A stretch of 64,000 nt of DNA from a bacterium (GTDB lineage: Bacteria > Patescibacteriota > Minisyncoccia > Phycocordibacterales > Zambryskibacteraceae). Positions 33,912-61,163 of this stretch are shown one piece after another. Below the pieces are notes generated by a model that did not search any database, was not told the origin of the DNA, and saw only the letters and a list, made by a program, of their open reading frames with translations. Numbering within the stretch: position 1 is the first letter of the stretch; each line of letters opens with the position of its first letter. The stretch covers positions 128,001 to 192,000 of the forward strand of contig JAUSGI010000008.1 of the NCBI GenBank assembly GCA_030649135.1, written 5' to 3'. Made by a program: the position numbers and the translations under genes.

Positions 33912-35132
33912 ATGAGCGAACTGGGAAATAACGACCATCGGCGTATTGGACAAGAACTCGACTTGTTCGTGTTTTCTGATTTGGTAGGAAGCGGACTGCC
34001 GATGTGGACTCCTCGAGGCACTATTATTCGCCAGGAGCTAGACAATTTCGTCTGGGAGTTACGCTCCCAGTATGACTATTCGAGAGTAACAATTCCCCAC
34101 ATTACTAAGCGCGACCTTTACGAAACTTCCGGCCATTGGGAGAAATTCGGTGATGATCTTTTTAGAATAGTTTCTCGCGAGGGCAAGGACTTTGCACTCA
34201 AGCCTATGAATTGCCCTCACCATACTCAAATCTTCGCTCGAAAGCCGCATTCCTATCGTGAAATGCCCCAGCGCTATGCTGAGACAACCATGGTCTATCG
34301 TGATGAGCAGTCTGGAGAACTCGGTGGCCTCACCCGGGTTCTTTCTATTACTCAAGACGACTCTCACGTCTTCTGTCGCGCTTCTCAAATCAAGGAAGAG
34401 TTTCTTAAAATTTGGGATATGGTGGATAAATTTTACAGTACTTTCGGTTTCAGTCTTAGAGTACGTCTGTCTTTTCGTGACCCAGCTACTCCGGAAAAAT
34501 ATCTTGGCACACCGGAAATTTGGAACCGAGCCGAAGATGAGCTTCGTGAAATTGCAACAGAACGTGGGGCAGATTTCTTCGAAGGCCTGGGGGAGGCCGC
34601 CCTTTACGGACCGAAGCTTGATTTCGTTGCCAAGAATGCCGCGGGTCGCGAATGGCAAGTAGCGACTATTCAACTTGATATGAACCTACCCGAAAGATTT
34701 GACTTGTCATGCATTAATGAGAAAGGAGAGAAGGAGCGTATTGTGATGATCCACTCTGCTATTACCGGGTCGATTGAACGCTGCGTGGCAATCATTCTTG
34801 AACATTTAGAAGGCACTCTCCCTCTCTGGCTCTCGCCTGTCCAAGTCAAGATACTGCCCATCGGTGAAGCACATTTTGAATACGCAAAAAATGTTTTTGA
34901 GAAATTAAAAGCAGAAAATATTAGGGTAGAATTGGACGATTCAAATGAAAGCCTGGGCAAGAAAATCAGAAATGCCAAAACCGAGAAGATTCCTTATATG
35001 TTGGTAATTGGAGACAAAGAGGTTTCAGAAAGTAAAGTGACACTTGAGAGTCGTAACGATGAAAAGTTAGGTCAGATTGGAATTGAAGAGCTAGTTTCTA
35101 AACTCAAACAAGAAATAAAAGGGCGAGTTTAG
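33912..35132 (+). CDS. thrS: threonyl-tRNA synthetase, catalytic core plus anticodon-binding domain only (no N-terminal TGS or editing domains)
   Basis: HRRIGQELDLF, MNCPHHTQIF and class II motifs. 406 aa. Confidence 0.85.
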   Translation: MSELGNNDHRRIGQELDLFVFSDLVGSGLPMWTPRGTIIRQELDNFVWELRSQYDYSRVTIPHITKRDLYETSGHWEKFGDDLFRIVSREGKDFALKPMNCPHHTQIFARKPHSYREMPQRYAETTMVYRDEQSGELGGLTRVLSITQDDSHVFCRASQIKEEFLKIWDMVDKFYSTFGFSLRVRLSFRDPATPEKYLGTPEIWNRAEDELREIATERGADFFEGLGEAALYGPKLDFVAKNAAGREWQVATIQLDMNLPERFDLSCINEKGEKERIVMIHSAITGSIERCVAIILEHLEGTLPLWLSPVQVKILPIGEAHFEYAKNVFEKLKAENIRVELDDSNESLGKKIRNAKTEKIPYMLVIGDKEVSESKVTLESRNDEKLGQIGIEELVSKLKQEIKGRV

Positions 35133-50787: not shown

Positions 50788-52071
50788 TTATGGTTTTATT
50801 AGCGCTTCAATCTCATTATGGGCATGGTAGACTGCCTCGAGAGTGCGGGCACGGCCACTGGTTACGGATTCTATTGCGTTATGAAAGATTGTTTTGGTCA
50901 TCACGGTATCAGGGTCCAGCCAGCCCTTAGACTGAAGCGCCGCATCGTAAAAGACAGACAATGCCGTGTCAGCCGGTCTTACAGATAGGAGGTCGCGCCG
51001 TGCCGGTGGTAGAGAAAGAATCTCGGATAAAGCCCGCGCCACATCTTTTGACACCAATTTGGTGGCGAGGGCAAGTGCGGCGCCGGGATTTAGAGAACCG
51101 CGGGATATGGCCACCCCTCGCAGTCGCCCGAAGGTAACAGTCTTACCGGTGACTCTCGACTGGGGTACGGATGAGACGGCAAAGTTGAGAATGGGGTTTT
51201 TGTTCCTAAGCACGCGAAGTTCTGATGCAAAGCCCAGATAATAAGCGGAATCGCCACTTGTGAAGTGGGTCTGGGCATCAATGAGCGAACGATTCCAACT
51301 ATAGTAGACCCTCGTCGGGTTTGAGAATTGGGTGTAAAAACTTAGGGCCGCCTCACCCGGCGAAATTGTCAAACCAAAAGTTTCGGCGATTTGTGAGCGC
51401 AATTCTATTCCGGCCAAACTGGTAATAGGCGTGCCGGCCTGAAGTAGCAGTAGAGCGAGAATGTCTTTGGCATGAGGAATATTTCGCGCCTCCCCCAGAG
51501 CCATGACCGAAGAAATGAGATTACCCGCGGCATCCTTTTTAGATAGATTGGTAGCGGCCGGATATATTTCATCCCAATACACAATAGGTCTGGCTTGCCC
51601 CGCTGCCGTAAGCAAATCTCTATTATAGTAAAGCACCAAGGGGTCTAGAGAGAGAGGAAGAGCGTAGATACCACCCGGGTCAAGGAAGAGTTCCCCTTCT
51701 TCAATGAATACGCTCTTGAAATCTCGCTCATTCACATTGCTGTAAGAAATGAGCGCGAGCTTGGGCTTATTTTTCCAAAGTTTGTCTTGAGTGAGAATAA
51801 TCAGGTCAGGGCCAGTTCCCCGCGCCAACGCTTCGGTAAATTCCGCCTCTATTGTGTCAGCTGACTTTTCTTCATAACTTACGGAGAATGCCCGGTCTTC
51901 ACCAAGAAGGGATGGGGTAAGTAAAAGATTAAAGTCCTGTGAGGTAATATCTCCCCAGACGGTTAAGGCAACATTCTGGCCACCAGAACCGCGATACAAA
52001 GAGAAGGCCGCCACGCCGGCGACAATAGCAACCGCGAAAATCGCTAAGAGAATAATCTGAAACTTTGACAT
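50788..52071 (-). CDS. membrane-anchored extracellular solute-binding-protein-like protein (orphan)
   Basis: N-terminal TM anchor followed by a periplasmic-binding-protein-like fold. No permease or ATPase gene is adjacent. Confidence 0.5.
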   Translation of the reverse strand: MSKFQIILLAIFAVAIVAGVAAFSLYRGSGGQNVALTVWGDITSQDFNLLLTPSLLGEDRAFSVSYEEKSADTIEAEFTEALARGTGPDLIILTQDKLWKNKPKLALISYSNVNERDFKSVFIEEGELFLDPGGIYALPLSLDPLVLYYNRDLLTAAGQARPIVYWDEIYPAATNLSKKDAAGNLISSVMALGEARNIPHAKDILALLLLQAGTPITSLAGIELRSQIAETFGLTISPGEAALSFYTQFSNPTRVYYSWNRSLIDAQTHFTSGDSAYYLGFASELRVLRNKNPILNFAVSSVPQSRVTGKTVTFGRLRGVAISRGSLNPGAALALATKLVSKDVARALSEILSLPPARRDLLSVRPADTALSVFYDAALQSKGWLDPDTVMTKTIFHNAIESVTSGRARTLEAVYHAHNEIEALIKP

Positions 52072-52114: not shown

Positions 52115-52135
52115 TGTCAAAGACCGTCTTTGACA
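52115..52135 (+). repeat. REP-A copy 1 (TGTCAAAGACCGTCTTTGACA)
   Basis: Exact palindrome located 10 nt upstream of the RAYT start. Confidence 0.85.
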
Positions 52136-52145
52136 TAATAGGTTC

Positions 52146-52793
52146 ATGGGTAATAGAGACTATAAAAAATTTGCCACTGGAACTATCTTTCATATATACA
52201 ATAGAGGCAATAACCGAGAAAAAATTTTCCATGATGAGCAGGACTATAAAGCGCTAATATTTAGAATTGGTCTGGCACTAGGATTCGAAGAAAAAGAACT
52301 GTCACATCAATTATGTCACCAACCATATTCAAGAATCAGGATTACAGGCACACATAAAGGAAAATTCAAGCTACACGCTTTTTGTCTTATGCCAAATCAT
52401 TTTCACTTACTTATCGAACAGTGTGAAGATGTGCCTATATCGAAAATTATCTCGAAAATATGTGCAAGTTATGCTAAATATGTAAATAAAAAATACAAAA
52501 GAGTCGGGCATGTATTTCAGGATAAATTTAAAGCAGTACTTATGGAATCAAATGAACAACTTATGTGGATTTGCACATATATACACATGAATGCAGTGAA
52601 GGACAGTATGGTCAAACATCCAGATGAATATGTATGGAGTAGCTACAATGACTATACAACTGACAGAAATCTGCCAATCATAAATACTGACTTTTTGATC
52701 TCACTATTTGGTGATAAAAATAGTTTCAAAAAAGAGACCCTCCGCCCTTACTCAGATAGCCTGTCAAAGACCGTCTTTGACATTAAGAGTTGA
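52146..52793 (+). CDS. REP-associated tyrosine transposase (RAYT; IS200/IS605 Y1 HUH family)
   Basis: HUH motif MPNHFHLLIE and catalytic Tyr region YVWSSY. The last 10 codons are encoded by REP-A copy 2. Confidence 0.85.
   Translation: MGNRDYKKFATGTIFHIYNRGNNREKIFHDEQDYKALIFRIGLALGFEEKELSHQLCHQPYSRIRITGTHKGKFKLHAFCLMPNHFHLLIEQCEDVPISKIISKICASYAKYVNKKYKRVGHVFQDKFKAVLMESNEQLMWICTYIHMNAVKDSMVKHPDEYVWSSYNDYTTDRNLPIINTDFLISLFGDKNSFKKETLRPYSDSLSKTVFDIKS
52762..52782 (+). repeat. REP-A copy 2
   Basis: Identical 21-mer, overlapping the RAYT 3' end. Confidence 0.85.
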
Positions 52794-52813
52794 AACATAT
52801 CGGTCTGGATTAT

Positions 52814-53590
52814 TTATTTCAAAACCACCATCAGGTGATCTGAGAAATCGATATAGCCACCCTTTTGATATTCTTTGATTTTCTTAAGGAACTCTTCAGC
52901 CTCTGTATCATTCGGAAAAGAATCAGTATTATGAATAAATCTATAGAAAATCTTGAGGTCAAAACGGCTATTAGTCGTAAGGATATCTCCAACAAACATT
53001 CTCATCCTTAATCTCTTAACCTCGACCTTAAACCCGAGTTTCTTATAGAAATCAGCGATGTATTCTGCATAATTAAATTCTGGGTAAACCTGTTGCAACA
53101 TTATCTTATAGTGATCGCTATCTTCAGGAAGAGTGAGAATAAGCAATTTGCCATCATTATTTAATAAGTCAGGAAGTTTAGAGAGTTGTGCATTATAATC
53201 TTTTTCATTGAGACCCCAGTAATAGTTTGTGTGGGATGTAAAGACAATATCGTATTTTTTATCAGTTTTAAAAGTAGCAAGACTCCCTGGAAAACATTCC
53301 CCAATGTTATTTTCCAGAGTTAAAAATGCTTTGGCTGATGATAAGGCATTTTGATTAGGTTCAAGTAAGTCACAAATGTAGTCTCCTTCAACACGGTCAA
53401 GAATCTGCTTTGTAGTGTGGCCTTCGCCGCAACCAATATCAAGAACGAGTTTATTGGGGGAATTTTGAGTATTTATCTCTTTTACAATTTCAGCTACAAT
53501 CCCAAACCAATCCTCAGCAAAACTACGAATGTAGATATTTTCGTATACATCTGAAAATTCTTTTTCTCCCCAGAAATGCCACTTTGCCAT
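52814..53590 (-). CDS. class I SAM-dependent methyltransferase
   Basis: Motif I VLDIGCGEGHTT. Lies between REP-A copies 2 and 3. Confidence 0.8.
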   Translation of the reverse strand: MAKWHFWGEKEFSDVYENIYIRSFAEDWFGIVAEIVKEINTQNSPNKLVLDIGCGEGHTTKQILDRVEGDYICDLLEPNQNALSSAKAFLTLENNIGECFPGSLATFKTDKKYDIVFTSHTNYYWGLNEKDYNAQLSKLPDLLNNDGKLLILTLPEDSDHYKIMLQQVYPEFNYAEYIADFYKKLGFKVEVKRLRMRMFVGDILTTNSRFDLKIFYRFIHNTDSFPNDTEAEEFLKKIKEYQKGGYIDFSDHLMVVLK

Positions 53591-53611
53591 AATATTTTTT
53601 ATTTCAGGATA

Positions 53612-53632
53612 ATGTCAAAGACGGTCTTTGAC
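53612..53632 (-). repeat. REP-A copy 3 (inverted orientation, TGTCAAAGACGGTCTTTGACA)
   Basis: Reverse complement of copies 1 and 2. Confidence 0.85.
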
Positions 53633-53678
53633 ATACACATACATTTGAGAATGGAGATTTTTTCACAAGCATAAATAA

Positions 53679-56123
53679 TCAAAAACAAATTAAGGAAGCT
53701 ATGCTATCCCCCTCTCTTAATTTCATAATCCTTACTCCCTGAGTCTGGCGACCCAACTCCGGAATCTCTTTGAGCCCAACCCGGACTACCTGACTCTTTT
53801 TGGAAATAGCTATGACTTCGTCTTCTTGGTCGGTCACCACTTGCGAGGCGATAACCTGACCAGTTTTCGGTGTCACTTTAGAAGTGAGAATACCGGAACC
53901 ACCCCTGCCTTGTACTTTGTATTCGGATAGTTCCGTGCGCTTACCGTAGCCATTGGCAGAAATGACCAAGAGATGACCCGCTTTCTCTTCTGATTTGATA
54001 TGGTGCGCGCCCACGACCAGGTCCCCTTTGCCGAGCTTAATCCCCCTCACTCCTCCCGCGCCACGGCCCATCTCACGAATGGCCGATTCCTTAAACCGGA
54101 TGGACTGGCCTTTTTTCGTCACAATGGACATGTCATCGTTCTTCTCGACCAATTCAACCGATATCAATCTGTCTCCCGGAGAAAGTTTGATGGCAATGAT
54201 GCCGGAAGCGCGCACGTCATGAAAACTTTTAGCCGAGACTTTCTTGGCGGTACCGTTTTCCGTAATCATAAATAGCGAACCACCGATATCCTTCTTGCCC
54301 TTGCCCATCGCCAGAATGGAAGTCACCTTCTCGTCATCAGAAAGTGAAATGAAATTCATCACCGACTTGCCGCGCGTAGCGCGCTTACCCTCCGGAATGT
54401 CATACATCTTGATTTGATAAGCCTTACCCTTGTCGGTAAAGAACAAGAGGTCGGCATGGGTGCTGGCAGTCAAAAAATTGGTGACAAAGTCCTCTTCTTT
54501 GGTATCCAGGTCTACCACTCCTACCCCGCCACGTTTCTGGCGTCTGTATTCATCCGGATTGGTGCGCTTGATGTATCCACCTGATGTTAGAACTAGCGTA
54601 TTCTCTTCCTCTGGCACCAAATCTTCGACAGAAAGAATTTTGACTCCCCCTTTGATTACTTTGGTGCGACGCTCGTCACCATACTTATCTTTAATATCTT
54701 GTAGTTCAGTCTTGACTACTTTTAAAATTTTAGCGTTCGAGGCCAATAATTCTTTCAGCTCTTTGATAAAAGCTTGGACTTCTTTAAGTTCATCCTCCAC
54801 TTTCTGGCGTTCCAGACCGGCCAGTTTCTGGAGCTTCATTTCGAGAATGGCATTGGCCTGCAATTCGGAAAGTTTAAATTCTTTTATCAAACCGGCTCGG
54901 GCGTCGTCAACGCTTGATGAGGCTCGAATGAGTTTGATAACTCGGTCAATGTTGTCGAGAGCAATCGTAAGACCGAGCAGAATGTGTTCGCGTTCCTCGG
55001 CTTTGGCCAAATCAAATGCTGTACGACGCTTGACCACTACCTCTCGATGTTTGAGAAACTCAATGAGCATGCTCTTGAGTGATAGAGTCTGAGGTACGCC
55101 ATCGACCAATGCCACGAGATTGAAGTGGAAAGTTTCCTCGAGTTGGGTATGTTTGTAGAGAGCATTTAAGATTTTCTGCGGTTGACTGCCATTTTTAAGA
55201 TCAATAACCACCCGAACGTCTTTAGTCGACTCATCACGCAAACCCTTCACCCCTTCAATCTTCTTCTCTCGCACTAAGTCCGCAATTTTAGGTATTAACC
55301 CCTCCGCTTTATTTACTCGGTATGGAATCGCGGTGATGATAATCTGATTACCGCCGCCCTTACCTTCCACAATCTCAGCCACACCACGGACCACCACTGG
55401 CCCTCGACCGGTAGCATAAGCATGGTGAATATCTTTTTCATTAAAAATAATACCGCCAGTGGGAAAGTCTGGGCCCTTTATAAACCCGAGTAAATCTTCC
55501 GTAGTCGCATCACGATTATCAGCTAGGTGGACCGTAGCATCAATAACTTCCGAAAGATTATGAGGTGGAATATTGGTAGCCATGCCCACGGCGATACCCA
55601 AAGTACCGTTGAGTAAAAGGTTAGGCGTTGCCGCCGGTAAAACTACCGGCTCTGACCTTGTACCATCGTAATTGGGTCTGAAGTCTACCGTATCTTTATC
55701 AATATCTTTAAGCATTTCACCTGCCAGACGTGACATCTTCGCCTCGGTGTAACGATAAGCAGCGGCACTATCTCCGTCTATTGAACCGAAATTTCCTTGT
55801 CCGATAACCAAGGGATAACGCATCGAGAAATCCTGTGTCATTTTGACCATGGCTTCGTAGACAGAGGAGTCGCCATGCGGGTGATATTTGCCGAGCACGT
55901 CTCCAACGATGGTGGCGGACTTCTTGGTCTTAGCGCCCGCGTTAAGACCAATCTCATTCATGGCATAGAGAATACGGCGGTGCACCGGCTTGAGGCCATC
56001 ACGCACATCAGGCAATGCGCGGTCGGTGATGACCGACATGGCATAGTCGATAAACGACTCCTTCATCTCGCTCGTAATCGGGCGAGAGATAACTCTGTCT
56101 CCGTCCTTATTCGCCATATACAT
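53679..56123 (-). CDS. gyrA: DNA gyrase subunit A
   Basis: [28 protein letters not shown] with the catalytic Tyr region and a C-terminal beta-pinwheel. Confidence 0.93.
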
Positions 56124-60446: not shown

Positions 60447-61163
60447 TGTCAAACACTGGGTGTTAGACAACTATAGGATCTTCAAATAATCTAGCTCTTC
60501 TTCTAGAAGTTTTGCTGGACTTGTCCTAGTAAACTCTTGGTATTTGTCTGGGCCTTTGAATTGACCTAGAACGATTTCTGATAAAAGCAGACTTCCCCAT
60601 CGATTTTCTTTTATAAAATCTTGATAGCTTGACCAAGGATATTGGTCTTCTTTCTTAAACCACTTCCCAATCTCTCTCGGGTTTCTATGAATATAGCTAG
60701 ACAGATATAAAAGCTGATGATCACCTTCTATATGAACCGCACGATAAGGCCCTTGAAAAACATGTCCAGATTTATCATATCTGGTATTGTAATATTTGGC
60801 ATAAGCATTAAGCACTCTCTGCATATAAGCTGCTATGCCTTCTTCTTCAACTTCTTTGACCAATAAGTGGAAATGGTTTGGCATGATACGGAAAGAAACA
60901 AGCTCAACTGTACGCTTTTTAACAATCTCCTCTGTATTATCTAACACCCGGTGTTTGACGAAATCCTTTACTGACCTACCAACCTGTGGAAAAGTTACTT
61001 CTGATTGGAAGTAAAGAATGAGGAAAAGAAATCTGTTGTAGTCTCCTGTATCATGAAAAATAACTTGTTTGTGTACACCCCTATTACACAAATGATAATA
61101 CTCGTTTGGAGACAACCGTGTTCTTCTCATATATTCATTATGTCAAATACCCGGTGTTTGACA
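60447..61163. mobile_element. second REP–RAYT module (REP-B, RAYT, REP-B)
   Basis: Imperfect palindromes TGTCAAACACTGGGTGTTAGACA (60447-60469) and TGTCAAATACCCGGTGTTTGACA (61141-61163) abut the stop and start of the transposase gene. Confidence 0.7.
60471..61130 (-). CDS. REP-associated tyrosine transposase (RAYT; IS200/IS605 Y1 HUH family), second copy
   Basis: HUH motif MPNHFHLLVKE and YPWSSY. A partial REP-B (AACACCCGGTGTTTGAC) lies inside the gene at about 60943-60959. Confidence 0.85.
   Translation of the reverse strand: MRRTRLSPNEYYHLCNRGVHKQVIFHDTGDYNRFLFLILYFQSEVTFPQVGRSVKDFVKHRVLDNTEEIVKKRTVELVSFRIMPNHFHLLVKEVEEEGIAAYMQRVLNAYAKYYNTRYDKSGHVFQGPYRAVHIEGDHQLLYLSSYIHRNPREIGKWFKKEDQYPWSSYQDFIKENRWGSLLLSEIVLGQFKGPDKYQEFTRTSPAKLLEEELDYLKIL

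Follow-up and report, generated by a model that had tools for sequence, protein, structure and literature searches.

A probable REPtron-like locus beside gyrA in Patescibacteria and its clade-wide hairpin repeat

Introduction

Among the closest described counterparts of the system treated here is the REPtron of Escherichia coli (TnpAREP, structure 4ER8; subclass 2.2 of Quentin et al., group 2 of Bertels), in which a low-copy gene of housekeeping-like synteny, encoding a protein of the HUH/Y1 fold with a Y---NP motif, is flanked by cognate repetitive extragenic palindromes (REPs) that are also dispersed in the genome. A locus with these traits was analysed in a stretch of 64,000 nucleotides from a member of the Zambryskibacteraceae (Patescibacteria; assembly GCA_030649135.1, contig JAUSGI010000008.1, positions 128,001 to 192,000), hereafter called the window. 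It lies between gyrA and the gene of an extracellular solute-binding protein (SBP), and comprises a gene for a candidate domesticated-type REP-associated tyrosine transposase (RAYT), tnpA-A, three copies of a 21-nt hairpin and a methyltransferase gene. We consider it probable, at roughly 0.7, that this locus is a REPtron-like unit formed by a single RAYT-class gene and its cognate 21-nt hairpins in the gyrA-SBP gap, the hairpin being a clade-wide repeat and the methyltransferase gene a passenger.

The likeness to the E. coli system extends to TnpAREP being the best structural and profile match of TnpA-A, although the two proteins are only 18% identical. The E. coli REP carries an asymmetric 5' GTAG guide and is species-specific, with hundreds of copies, whereas the hairpin described here, a perfect palindrome (10+1+10) whose feet are TGTC...GACA, is common to many species, mostly intragenic and present in tens of copies at most. 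TnpAY1 proteins of subclass 2.1 (Bertels group 1; 'TIRYT') share with TnpA-A the NH[YF]H, FQ and Y[IV]HLNP motifs, the SS tail and a length above 200 aa, but were reported to have terminal inverted repeats and a helix-turn-helix domain at the C-terminus and to be free of REP-like sequences, whereas in the present case dispersed short hairpins flank the gene. Insertion sequences (IS) of the IS200/IS605 type, represented by the TnpA of IS608 and ISDra2, have the same fold and hairpins near both gene ends, with the element reaching slightly beyond, and their single-strand "peel and paste" transposition serves as a model for mechanism. However, IS of this type encode a protein of ~150 aa with a Y---Q motif, occur as many near-identical copies whose left and right ends differ, and often include tnpB, traits not seen here.

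Comparable repeats have been described inside genes. Intragenic REPs, CGTC/TGTC-tagged palindromes and Rickettsia palindromic elements (PMC3733652) resemble the hairpin in lying in frame within known genes, many of which function in DNA repair or replication or encode tRNA synthetases, and the tagged palindromes have, in addition, the terminal TGTC tag followed by A/T stem positions. Those elements were described as adding residues by insertion, and the CGTC repeats come without a dedicated transposase, whereas many copies of the hairpin replace codons and the repeat flanks a RAYT gene.

The Hairpins and the RAYT Gene of the Window

The gene order with direction is gyrA -> slot <- tnpA -> SBP, the slot being the space between gyrA and the hairpin at the tnpA 3' end. 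The left neighbour, gyrA (53679-56123, minus strand), is conserved at the RAYT locus across Patescibacteria, and the right neighbour, an SBP_bac_8 gene (50788-52071, minus strand), is conserved as well. Between them, tnpA-A (52146-52793, plus strand) encodes a predicted HUH/Y1 single-strand DNA nuclease of RAYT (TnpAREP) class with 215 aa, and the slot holds the gene of a class I S-adenosylmethionine (SAM)-dependent methyltransferase of 258 aa (52814-53590, minus strand). No tnpB-like open reading frame (ORF) adjoining tnpA-A is present in the ORF list of the window, and an Rfam scan of the window at gathering thresholds returned tRNAs only, with no match at the hairpins.

The palindrome, TGTCAAAGAC[C/G]GTCTTTGACA, has a 10+1+10 structure and occurs three times in the 64 kb, starting at 52115 (plus), 52762 (plus) and 53613 (reverse complement). 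Copy 1 (52115-52135, TGTCAAAGACCGTCTTTGACA) ends 10 nt 5' of the tnpA-A ATG and precedes the start of the divergent SBP gene by 43 nt. Copy 2 (52762-52782) overlaps the 3' end of tnpA-A, where it encodes LSKTVFD within the last 11 codons, and lies 31 nt past the methyltransferase stop, while copy 3 (53613-53633), whose central base is G on the plus strand, is found 22 nt 5' of the methyltransferase start and 45 nt past the gyrA stop. A search of the 64 kb that allowed up to three mismatches yielded no further copies of TGTCAAAGACCGTCTTTGACA, nor did one for its 19-nt core, and the observed number of matches was not attained in any of 100 shuffles (mean 0.01). When folded as single-stranded DNA each copy forms a stem of 9-10 bp closed by a loop of 3 nt, at -7.2 to -8.4 kcal/mol (z = -5.1 to -6.7). 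Copy 3 differs from copies 1 and 2 only in the unpaired central base (C vs G), and for this reason its orientation represents one base of information. A previous, sequence-only reading of this stretch had proposed a 21 bp exact palindrome in three copies, the third inverted; the three copies were found again, but the palindrome has a central unpaired base and the inversion reduces to that one-base loop difference.

The tnpA-A product matches Pfam Y1_Tnp (E 6e-12). When 30 homologues (62-85% identity) are aligned, H85 and H87 of the HUH motif (H85-F-H87) and Y145 are invariant in all 30, leaving the active site intact, and the family motifs NHFH, GHVFQ (FQ), YIHMNP and WSS can be recognized. 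The tyrosine motif, YIHMNPV in the family consensus, reads YIHMNAV in TnpA-A, N149 being kept and the proline replaced by alanine. The C-termini across the family are hairpin-encoded peptides, in many variants. According to Quentin et al. 2018 (PMC6006769, Table 1), Y---NP denotes class 2 (TnpAREP-like) and Y---Q the IS200 transposases, and the combination of NH[YF]H, FQ, Y[IV]HLNP and SS is that of subclass 2.1 (Bertels group 1); motif comparison thus suggests a place for TnpA-A in class 2, where it matches subclass 2.1. A phmmer search of the PDB with the single TnpA-A sequence gave no meaningful match, and the alignment profile had E. coli TnpAREP 4ER8 as its sole match (E 0.006). With the AlphaFold model of TnpA-A (pLDDT 78.6, pTM 0.80), Foldseek ranked 4er8_A first (E 1.7e-6, TM 0.68 on target), IS200, IS608 and ISDra2 being weaker (E 3e-4 to 1e-3). 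The class 2 motifs, the sole profile match and the top structure together indicate a RAYT-class rather than an IS200-class protein. An exact-sequence look-up of TnpA-A found no record.

These results bear out the RAYT-type architecture that the earlier reading had assigned to the HUH Y1 transposase, with one hairpin 10 nt before the ATG and another inside the last 11 codons, as well as its preference for the RAYT over the IS200 class, in which motifs, 4ER8 profile match and Foldseek order agree. Its guess of a host of the candidate phyla radiation type was also right, given a threonyl-tRNA synthetase (ThrRS) 75% identical to that of Parcubacteria GW2011_GWA2_40_14 and homologues named Zambryskibacteria or Paceibacterota.

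Dispersal of the Hairpin in Other Genomes

An exact scan for GTCAAAGACNGTCTTTGAC over one genome per species (596 Gb) found at least 118 stretches (these and other loci of relatives are designated by L numbers). The lineage labels among the matches listed are ~92 Patescibacteria (Nomura-, Zambryski-, Paceibacterota, Parcubacteria, Minisyncoccia and 'Saccharibacteria'), 16 unclassified 'bacterium' and ~10 other phyla. Since chance alone predicts ~9 sites (596e9 / 4^18), the non-Patescibacteria matches are at chance level and the remainder is signal. A close tnpA homologue is present in only 11 distinct stretches among the matches listed, with ~100 having no tnpA nearby. At 8 of these 11 loci the exact hairpin is found at both tnpA ends, the others being cut by a contig end or carrying a variant. 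Counted per assembly, as lower bounds, one tnpA coexists with at least nine hairpins in CAZGIA01, at least eight in DAOQAL01 and at least six in PCXM01, the density in relatives being ~1 per 100 kb. The hairpin is a clade-wide dispersed repeat: genomes of ~1 Mb have one tnpA but carry exact hairpin copies numbering from several to at least nine, and this excess of solo hairpins over a single tnpA is the pattern of REP/RAYT systems and not that of IS.

Conservation is confined to the symmetric 21-mer TGTCAAAGACSGTCTTTGACA. Doublets are formed by a sister variant, TGTCAAGGACNGTCCTTGACA, which is often 6-12 nt away from a hairpin copy, and close doublets 6-40 nt apart, including pairs of the A and B variants described below, are found in relatives (L023, L086, L087). 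In the window the hairpins are spaced by 647 and 851 nt and enclose genes, unlike the short-spacer inverted doublet of a REPIN. The palindrome, for which the sequence-only reading used the terms REP and REP doublet, is dispersed, outnumbers tnpA and forms close doublets in relatives; with no GT[AG]G foot and a mostly intragenic location there, it is an atypical REP. The literature search found nothing on the 19-mer or the SKTVFD peptide, and nothing describing this system among reports of RAYT/REP in Patescibacteria.

Contigs L061 / L101 (labelled 'Simkania sp.') and L021 ('Bacteroidota') carry Patescibacteria-type content, namely a gyrA-GrpB-RAYT-SBP arrangement and a hairpin-bearing gene that is the same as in L003, and are probably mis-binned.

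Hairpins Inside Genes

More than half of the distinct hairpin copies among the matches listed (75/137, 55%) fall inside ORFs of at least 150 codons. As 73% of random positions in the same loci are genic, the copies are depleted from genes (p 5e-6), yet mostly genic, and so do not have the extragenic location of REPs. The palindrome translates as SKTVFD in either orientation, and this frame is used by 73 of the 75 genic copies, the other two reading QRPSLT (p 1.5e-19), with the third frame containing TGA. The host genes include those of UvrC, NAD-ligase (LigA, L038), a DNA polymerase III delta'-like protein, an RNase HII-like protein, ThrRS and leucyl-tRNA synthetase (LeuRS). In UvrC the copies of L006, L026, L073 and L105 occupy the same site in four species, whose proteins are just 47-57% identical.

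The ThrRS gene allows the state of such a site to be compared among orthologues. The L059 protein is 75% identical to the window ORF at 33912-35132, and NTMSKTVFDML in the former aligns with FEYAKNVFEKL in the latter with no gap. Among 120 ThrRS orthologues (75-87% identity) the site could be read in 73, all of equal length; most have EYAK[KQE]VFE[LM], six have (E/T)MSKTVFD(R/M), and EMSKGTFDI, EMSKGLFDI and EVSKRHFDI are found among the others. At the DNA level the site is ATGTCAAAGACCGTCTTTGACAT in L059 and L005, TACGCAAAAAATGTTTTTGAGAAA in the window, a perfect variant, ATGTCAAAGGGCACCTTTGACAT, in L209, and a hybrid in L067. Orthologous sites alternate between an A (AAAGAC/GTCTTT) and a B (AAGGAC/GTCCTT) variant, with both arms changed. 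Intragenic REPs, often in repair and replication genes, were described as insertions by Di Nocera et al. 2013 (PMC3733652); some hairpin copies do add residues, but the alignments indicate that genic copies usually replace existing codons in place, rather than insert.

Such behaviour brings to mind a different explanation, namely that the 21-mer is primarily a host DNA signal, either an uptake-type sequence or a site for a dimeric protein, that accrues by biased conversion or selection, its association with tnpA being secondary and the transposase not being the spreader. DNA uptake sequences (Neisseria DUS, Pasteurellaceae USS) also arise by substitution in place, are tolerated in certain reading frames and are common to related species, and they are biased towards genome-maintenance genes, a bias echoed by the set of hairpin host genes (UvrC, LigA, DNA polymerase III delta', RNase HII and tRNA synthetases). 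The presence of the same 21-mer in dozens of species-level genomes, the 55% of listed copies that are genic and in essence keep to one reading frame, and the origin of copies without length change at sites already motif-like are all in line with this possibility. Nevertheless, the hairpin differs from uptake sequences in its perfect palindromy and its tie to a Y1 nuclease gene, and its ~1 copy per 100 kb corresponds to a ~100-fold lower density than theirs. Moreover, more than 20 loci have hairpins on either side of tnpA, the hairpin core varies with the adjacent TnpA lineage, and the TnpA C-termini end in hairpin-encoded peptides of many variants, all of which makes a pure host signal quite unlikely when set against the REPtron-like unit.

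The Gap between gyrA and the SBP Gene

A metagenome scan with the SBP as query provided 80 loci (41-79% identity), among which the order gyrA then SBP is conserved. In the comparison of presence and absence among relatives that the sequence-only reading had suggested, empty, tnpA-occupied and solo-hairpin gaps were all found. Some sites are empty, with ~20 nt between the stop codon of gyrA and the start of the SBP gene (L126, L127, L135, L136, L145 and others), and in 15 loci (among them L129, L142, L151, L166-L169, L178, L179, L186, L187, L193, L194 and L198) the gap is occupied by a homologue of tnpA (55-85% identity), which has the same reverse orientation. A solo exact hairpin is located just past the gyrA stop in L133, which has the same sequence as L116. 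The hairpins that flank tnpA in the occupied relatives keep the feet TGTCAA...TTGACA and differ in their cores (GGGCACC, GGGTGACCC, GGACAGTCC and GGGGCACCC).

Among the matches listed in the pattern scan, 9 of the 11 distinct tnpA loci adjoin gyrA, and 8 also the SBP gene, at gyrA identities of 61-79%, which points to long-standing syntenic residence. Divergence of TnpA correlates with that of the SBP (Spearman 0.54, Pearson 0.69). The sequence of the tnpA-SBP junction is common to the window, L142 and L151, while the other side differs in the latter two. In most relatives examined the tnpA GC content is 31-37% whatever the host flanks, so that low GC is a family trait and was discarded as proof of recent tnpA import. 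Comparison of these sequences thus indicates that tnpA and its hairpins are old syntenic residents of the gyrA-SBP gap, not a recent mobile insertion.

A RAYT gene directly downstream of gyrA was noted in L016, L025, L032, L034, L061, L075, L079, L110 and L117, as in the window (52115-56123). In L151, the closest TnpA relative (85% identity), the gyrA neighbourhood is replaced by a GC-rich ORF of 327 aa (814-1797), zinc-finger-transposase-like by eye, which adjoins the RAYT 3' hairpin. In three other loci the gyrA matches are split by ~1.1 kb, with query residues 88-119 overlapping (L161, 2216-5854; L198, 555-4145; L203, 64-3744), which suggests an intein or intron-like insertion. E. coli REPs have been reported as gyrase targets (cited in PMC3733652), and by analogy the adjacency to gyrA makes a functional link of RAYT/REP with gyrase conceivable.

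The Methyltransferase and the Variable Slot

The slot gene passes the Pfam cut-offs of Methyltransf_12, _25, _23 and _11 and has a Rossmann-type SAM-binding domain, in agreement with the class I SAM methyltransferase that had been recognized between the hairpins from sequence alone. No NCBIfam equivalog passed, and among solved proteins trans-aconitate methyltransferase (2P35) comes nearest (E 0.002). The gene (METHYLTRANSFERASE) is absent from all 80 SBP-anchored relatives, and its only other instance is a Logan contig with identical arrangement. Its 217 homologues (60-84% identity) come from Parcubacteria-type genomes. No hairpins were found at six homologue contexts (68-84% identity), which include the three closest (79-84%) and differ from one another, and a recurrent hairpin-methyltransferase-hairpin mobile unit was on these grounds ruled out. 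Because the gene is absent from the 80 relatives and its homologues elsewhere have no hairpins, it is best read as a lineage-specific passenger in a variable slot. The cargo-carrying REP doublet of the sequence-only reading is not a novel mobile unit, tnpA and the hairpins being old residents.

The slot of other RAYT loci contains GrpB (L061), cupin (L193, L194) or isochorismatase-family (L187) genes, or methyltransferase-like genes of another family (L016 and L198, that of L198 being a fragment). A passenger bracketed by two hairpins beside tnpA is seen in the window, L061, L193/L194 and L198, and hairpin-mediated capture of the methyltransferase gene is, by analogy, plausible.

It may also be, although we favour it less, that the methyltransferase gene entered a hypervariable intergenic hotspot by ordinary, hairpin-independent insertion, its bracketing being incidental. 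Genes without flanking hairpins do occur in the gap (PaaX/Cas2-like, 164-aa, isochorismatase and 163-175-aa methyltransferase genes; L128, L146, L187, L184, L204), an IS-like transposase lies beside the RAYT gene in L151, and the hairpin-free homologues elsewhere fit this account too. Against it, four independent lineages (those with bracketed passengers listed above) have a gene exactly enclosed by hairpins beside tnpA, and in the window no more than 22 and 31 nt separate the methyltransferase gene from the hairpins on its two sides. As regards the gap in general, a PaaX/Cas2-like ORF of 190-196 aa was observed in some relatives (the gap set of L128, L153, L189, L195 and L174), and the other occupants without hairpins include the 164-aa ORF and the methyltransferase of 163-175 aa, the gap being hypervariable.

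Insertion of the whole segment as a unit has also to be weighed. In this alternative, an autonomous IS of the IS200/IS605 type would have picked up the methyltransferase gene and recently transposed into the gap between gyrA and the SBP gene, as a segment bounded by hairpins 3 and 1. The edges of the low-GC island are within 45 nt of the outer hairpins, the inserted DNA runs ~27-45 nt past the hairpins, as do IS200/IS605 ends, empty sites exist in relatives, and some discordance between host and TnpA suggests turnover. On the other hand, the protein has Y---NP and not Y---Q and TnpAREP as its closest structure, tnpB is missing, and genomes carry one tnpA but many solo hairpins. In addition, tnpA occupies the same site and orientation in lineages with gyrA only 61-79% identical, the tnpA-SBP junction is shared with L142 and L151 though the other side differs, and the methyltransferase lacks hairpins in the other contexts examined. 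Recent transposition of an IS is for these reasons improbable, and the REPtron-like unit is preferred.

Several observations nonetheless weigh against that preferred explanation. The match of TnpA-A to NCBIfam REP_Tyr_transpos (E 1e-16, 61 bits) misses the equivalog cut-off of 80, so that by sequence TnpA-A is related to, but not an equivalog of, this proteobacterial family, and subclass 2.1, whose motifs it shows, was reported to have no REPs. The GT[AG]G guide tetranucleotide was not found at the 5' foot of the hairpin, and in the 64 kb of the window genome the 21-mer is confined to the locus, its dispersal being seen in relatives. The 52.1-53.64 kb segment has 33-36% GC against 47-50% in the flanks, and a 34% GC island in a window of ~47% would, taken alone, suggest recent import. 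The congruence of TnpA with host is only moderate, and in one discordant pair (L168/L178) the SBPs are 96% identical and the TnpA proteins 84.5%, with different hairpins, from which it follows that tnpA replacement or site targeting also occurs. Finally, the hairpin pair around the methyltransferase gene is opposite in loop orientation in the window and of the same orientation in L061, L193 and L198.

Possible Signals at the Hairpins

Intrinsic termination was considered for the hairpins and rejected, as no T-tract lies 3' of them and no terminator was called there. A sigma-70-like match facing the methyltransferase gene (53589-53618, minus strand; 11/12) combines the TTGACA of hairpin 3, an 18-nt spacer and TATTAT. 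However, its -10 overlaps the ATG of that gene, which rules out the hairpin 3 TTGACA as the -35 of a methyltransferase promoter. Every hairpin copy has an outward-facing TTGACA on both strands. Upstream of tnpA-A, the 3' arm of hairpin copy 1 plus ATAAT creates an extended -10-like motif, TGACATAAT (52131-52139, plus strand), and the same layout is found 5' of tnpA in relatives and of a second RAYT gene in the window (61137-61145, minus strand). This junction probably overlaps the tnpA promoter and could, judging from its layout, give autoregulation.

The start of the SBP gene, ATGTCAAAG (MSK...; 52063-52071, minus strand), matches a hairpin arm and is identical to the opening 9 nt of the hairpin in its extended form, ATGTCAAAGAC. 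The match is also present at empty sites (L126, L135, L136); it may have arisen by coincidence, or it may be a relic or half of a target site.

A Second RAYT Gene in the Window

The second RAYT-class gene, tnpA-B (60471-61130, minus strand; 219 aa), encodes a protein with a Pfam Y1_Tnp match (E 2e-11) that is 30% identical to TnpA-A. Its cognate hairpin, TGTCAAACACCGGGTATTTGACA on the minus strand (61141-61163), is a third variant in the same layout as at tnpA-A, with the hairpin followed by ATAAT and ATG. A degenerate copy, TGTCTAACACCCAGTGTTTGACA on the minus strand (60447-60469), lies directly 3' of the tnpA-B stop, and an in-frame degenerate copy is found inside the gene (60939-60959). A paralogue of the tnpA-B type was observed ~2.7 kb upstream of gyrA in L126, L128, L133, L138, L149 and L155.

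Proposed Mechanism

The steps considered here are inferred from the TnpAREP and IS608 paradigm (PMC3479197, PMC6006769). TnpA would bind the hairpin extruded on single-stranded DNA, for example on the lagging-strand template, cut beside it via Tyr145 and rejoin the ends. By joining two hairpin-adjacent ends it could insert a circular single strand with one hairpin and a gene at a resident hairpin, and that gene would then lie between two hairpins. Recombination of the two hairpins that flank tnpA would delete tnpA and leave a solo hairpin, and templated conversion may be the route by which the hairpin spreads.

A bolder and rather doubtful extension of this scheme is that RAYT and hairpin constitute a phylum-wide system of Patescibacteria, in which the hairpin overwrites quasi-palindromes in place and the gyrA-side gene doubles as a landing pad for cassettes. 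Overwriting would cover ~21-23 nt, leave the length unchanged and fall for the most part within essential genes, to be read there as SKTVFD, and at the landing pad hairpin-to-hairpin joining of single strands would capture small cassettes such as the methyltransferase gene. If true, this would amount to a non-transpositional route of REP dissemination, and REPs, RAYT and gyrase might be linked in function.

Implications

The locus largely qualifies as a REPtron. It is set apart from the described REPtrons by a symmetric, non-GTAG hairpin, by one 21-mer extending across many species and by mostly genic, in-frame copies made in place, and also by belonging to a subclass reported without REPs and by its fixed position beside gyrA. 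The methyltransferase "cargo" is of modest interest, the slot beside the RAYT gene being one that gathers small genes.

The mechanisms of REP dissemination are poorly understood (PMC8266576). The system described here provides a natural experiment, in which a short symmetric hairpin common to many small genomes is tied to one syntenic RAYT gene beside gyrA. Orthologous gene sites exist in three states with no length change (ancestral, hairpin A and another variant), making conversion versus transposition testable. With this finding, Patescibacteria and a RAYT subclass reported to be without REPs come within the scope of REP/RAYT biology.

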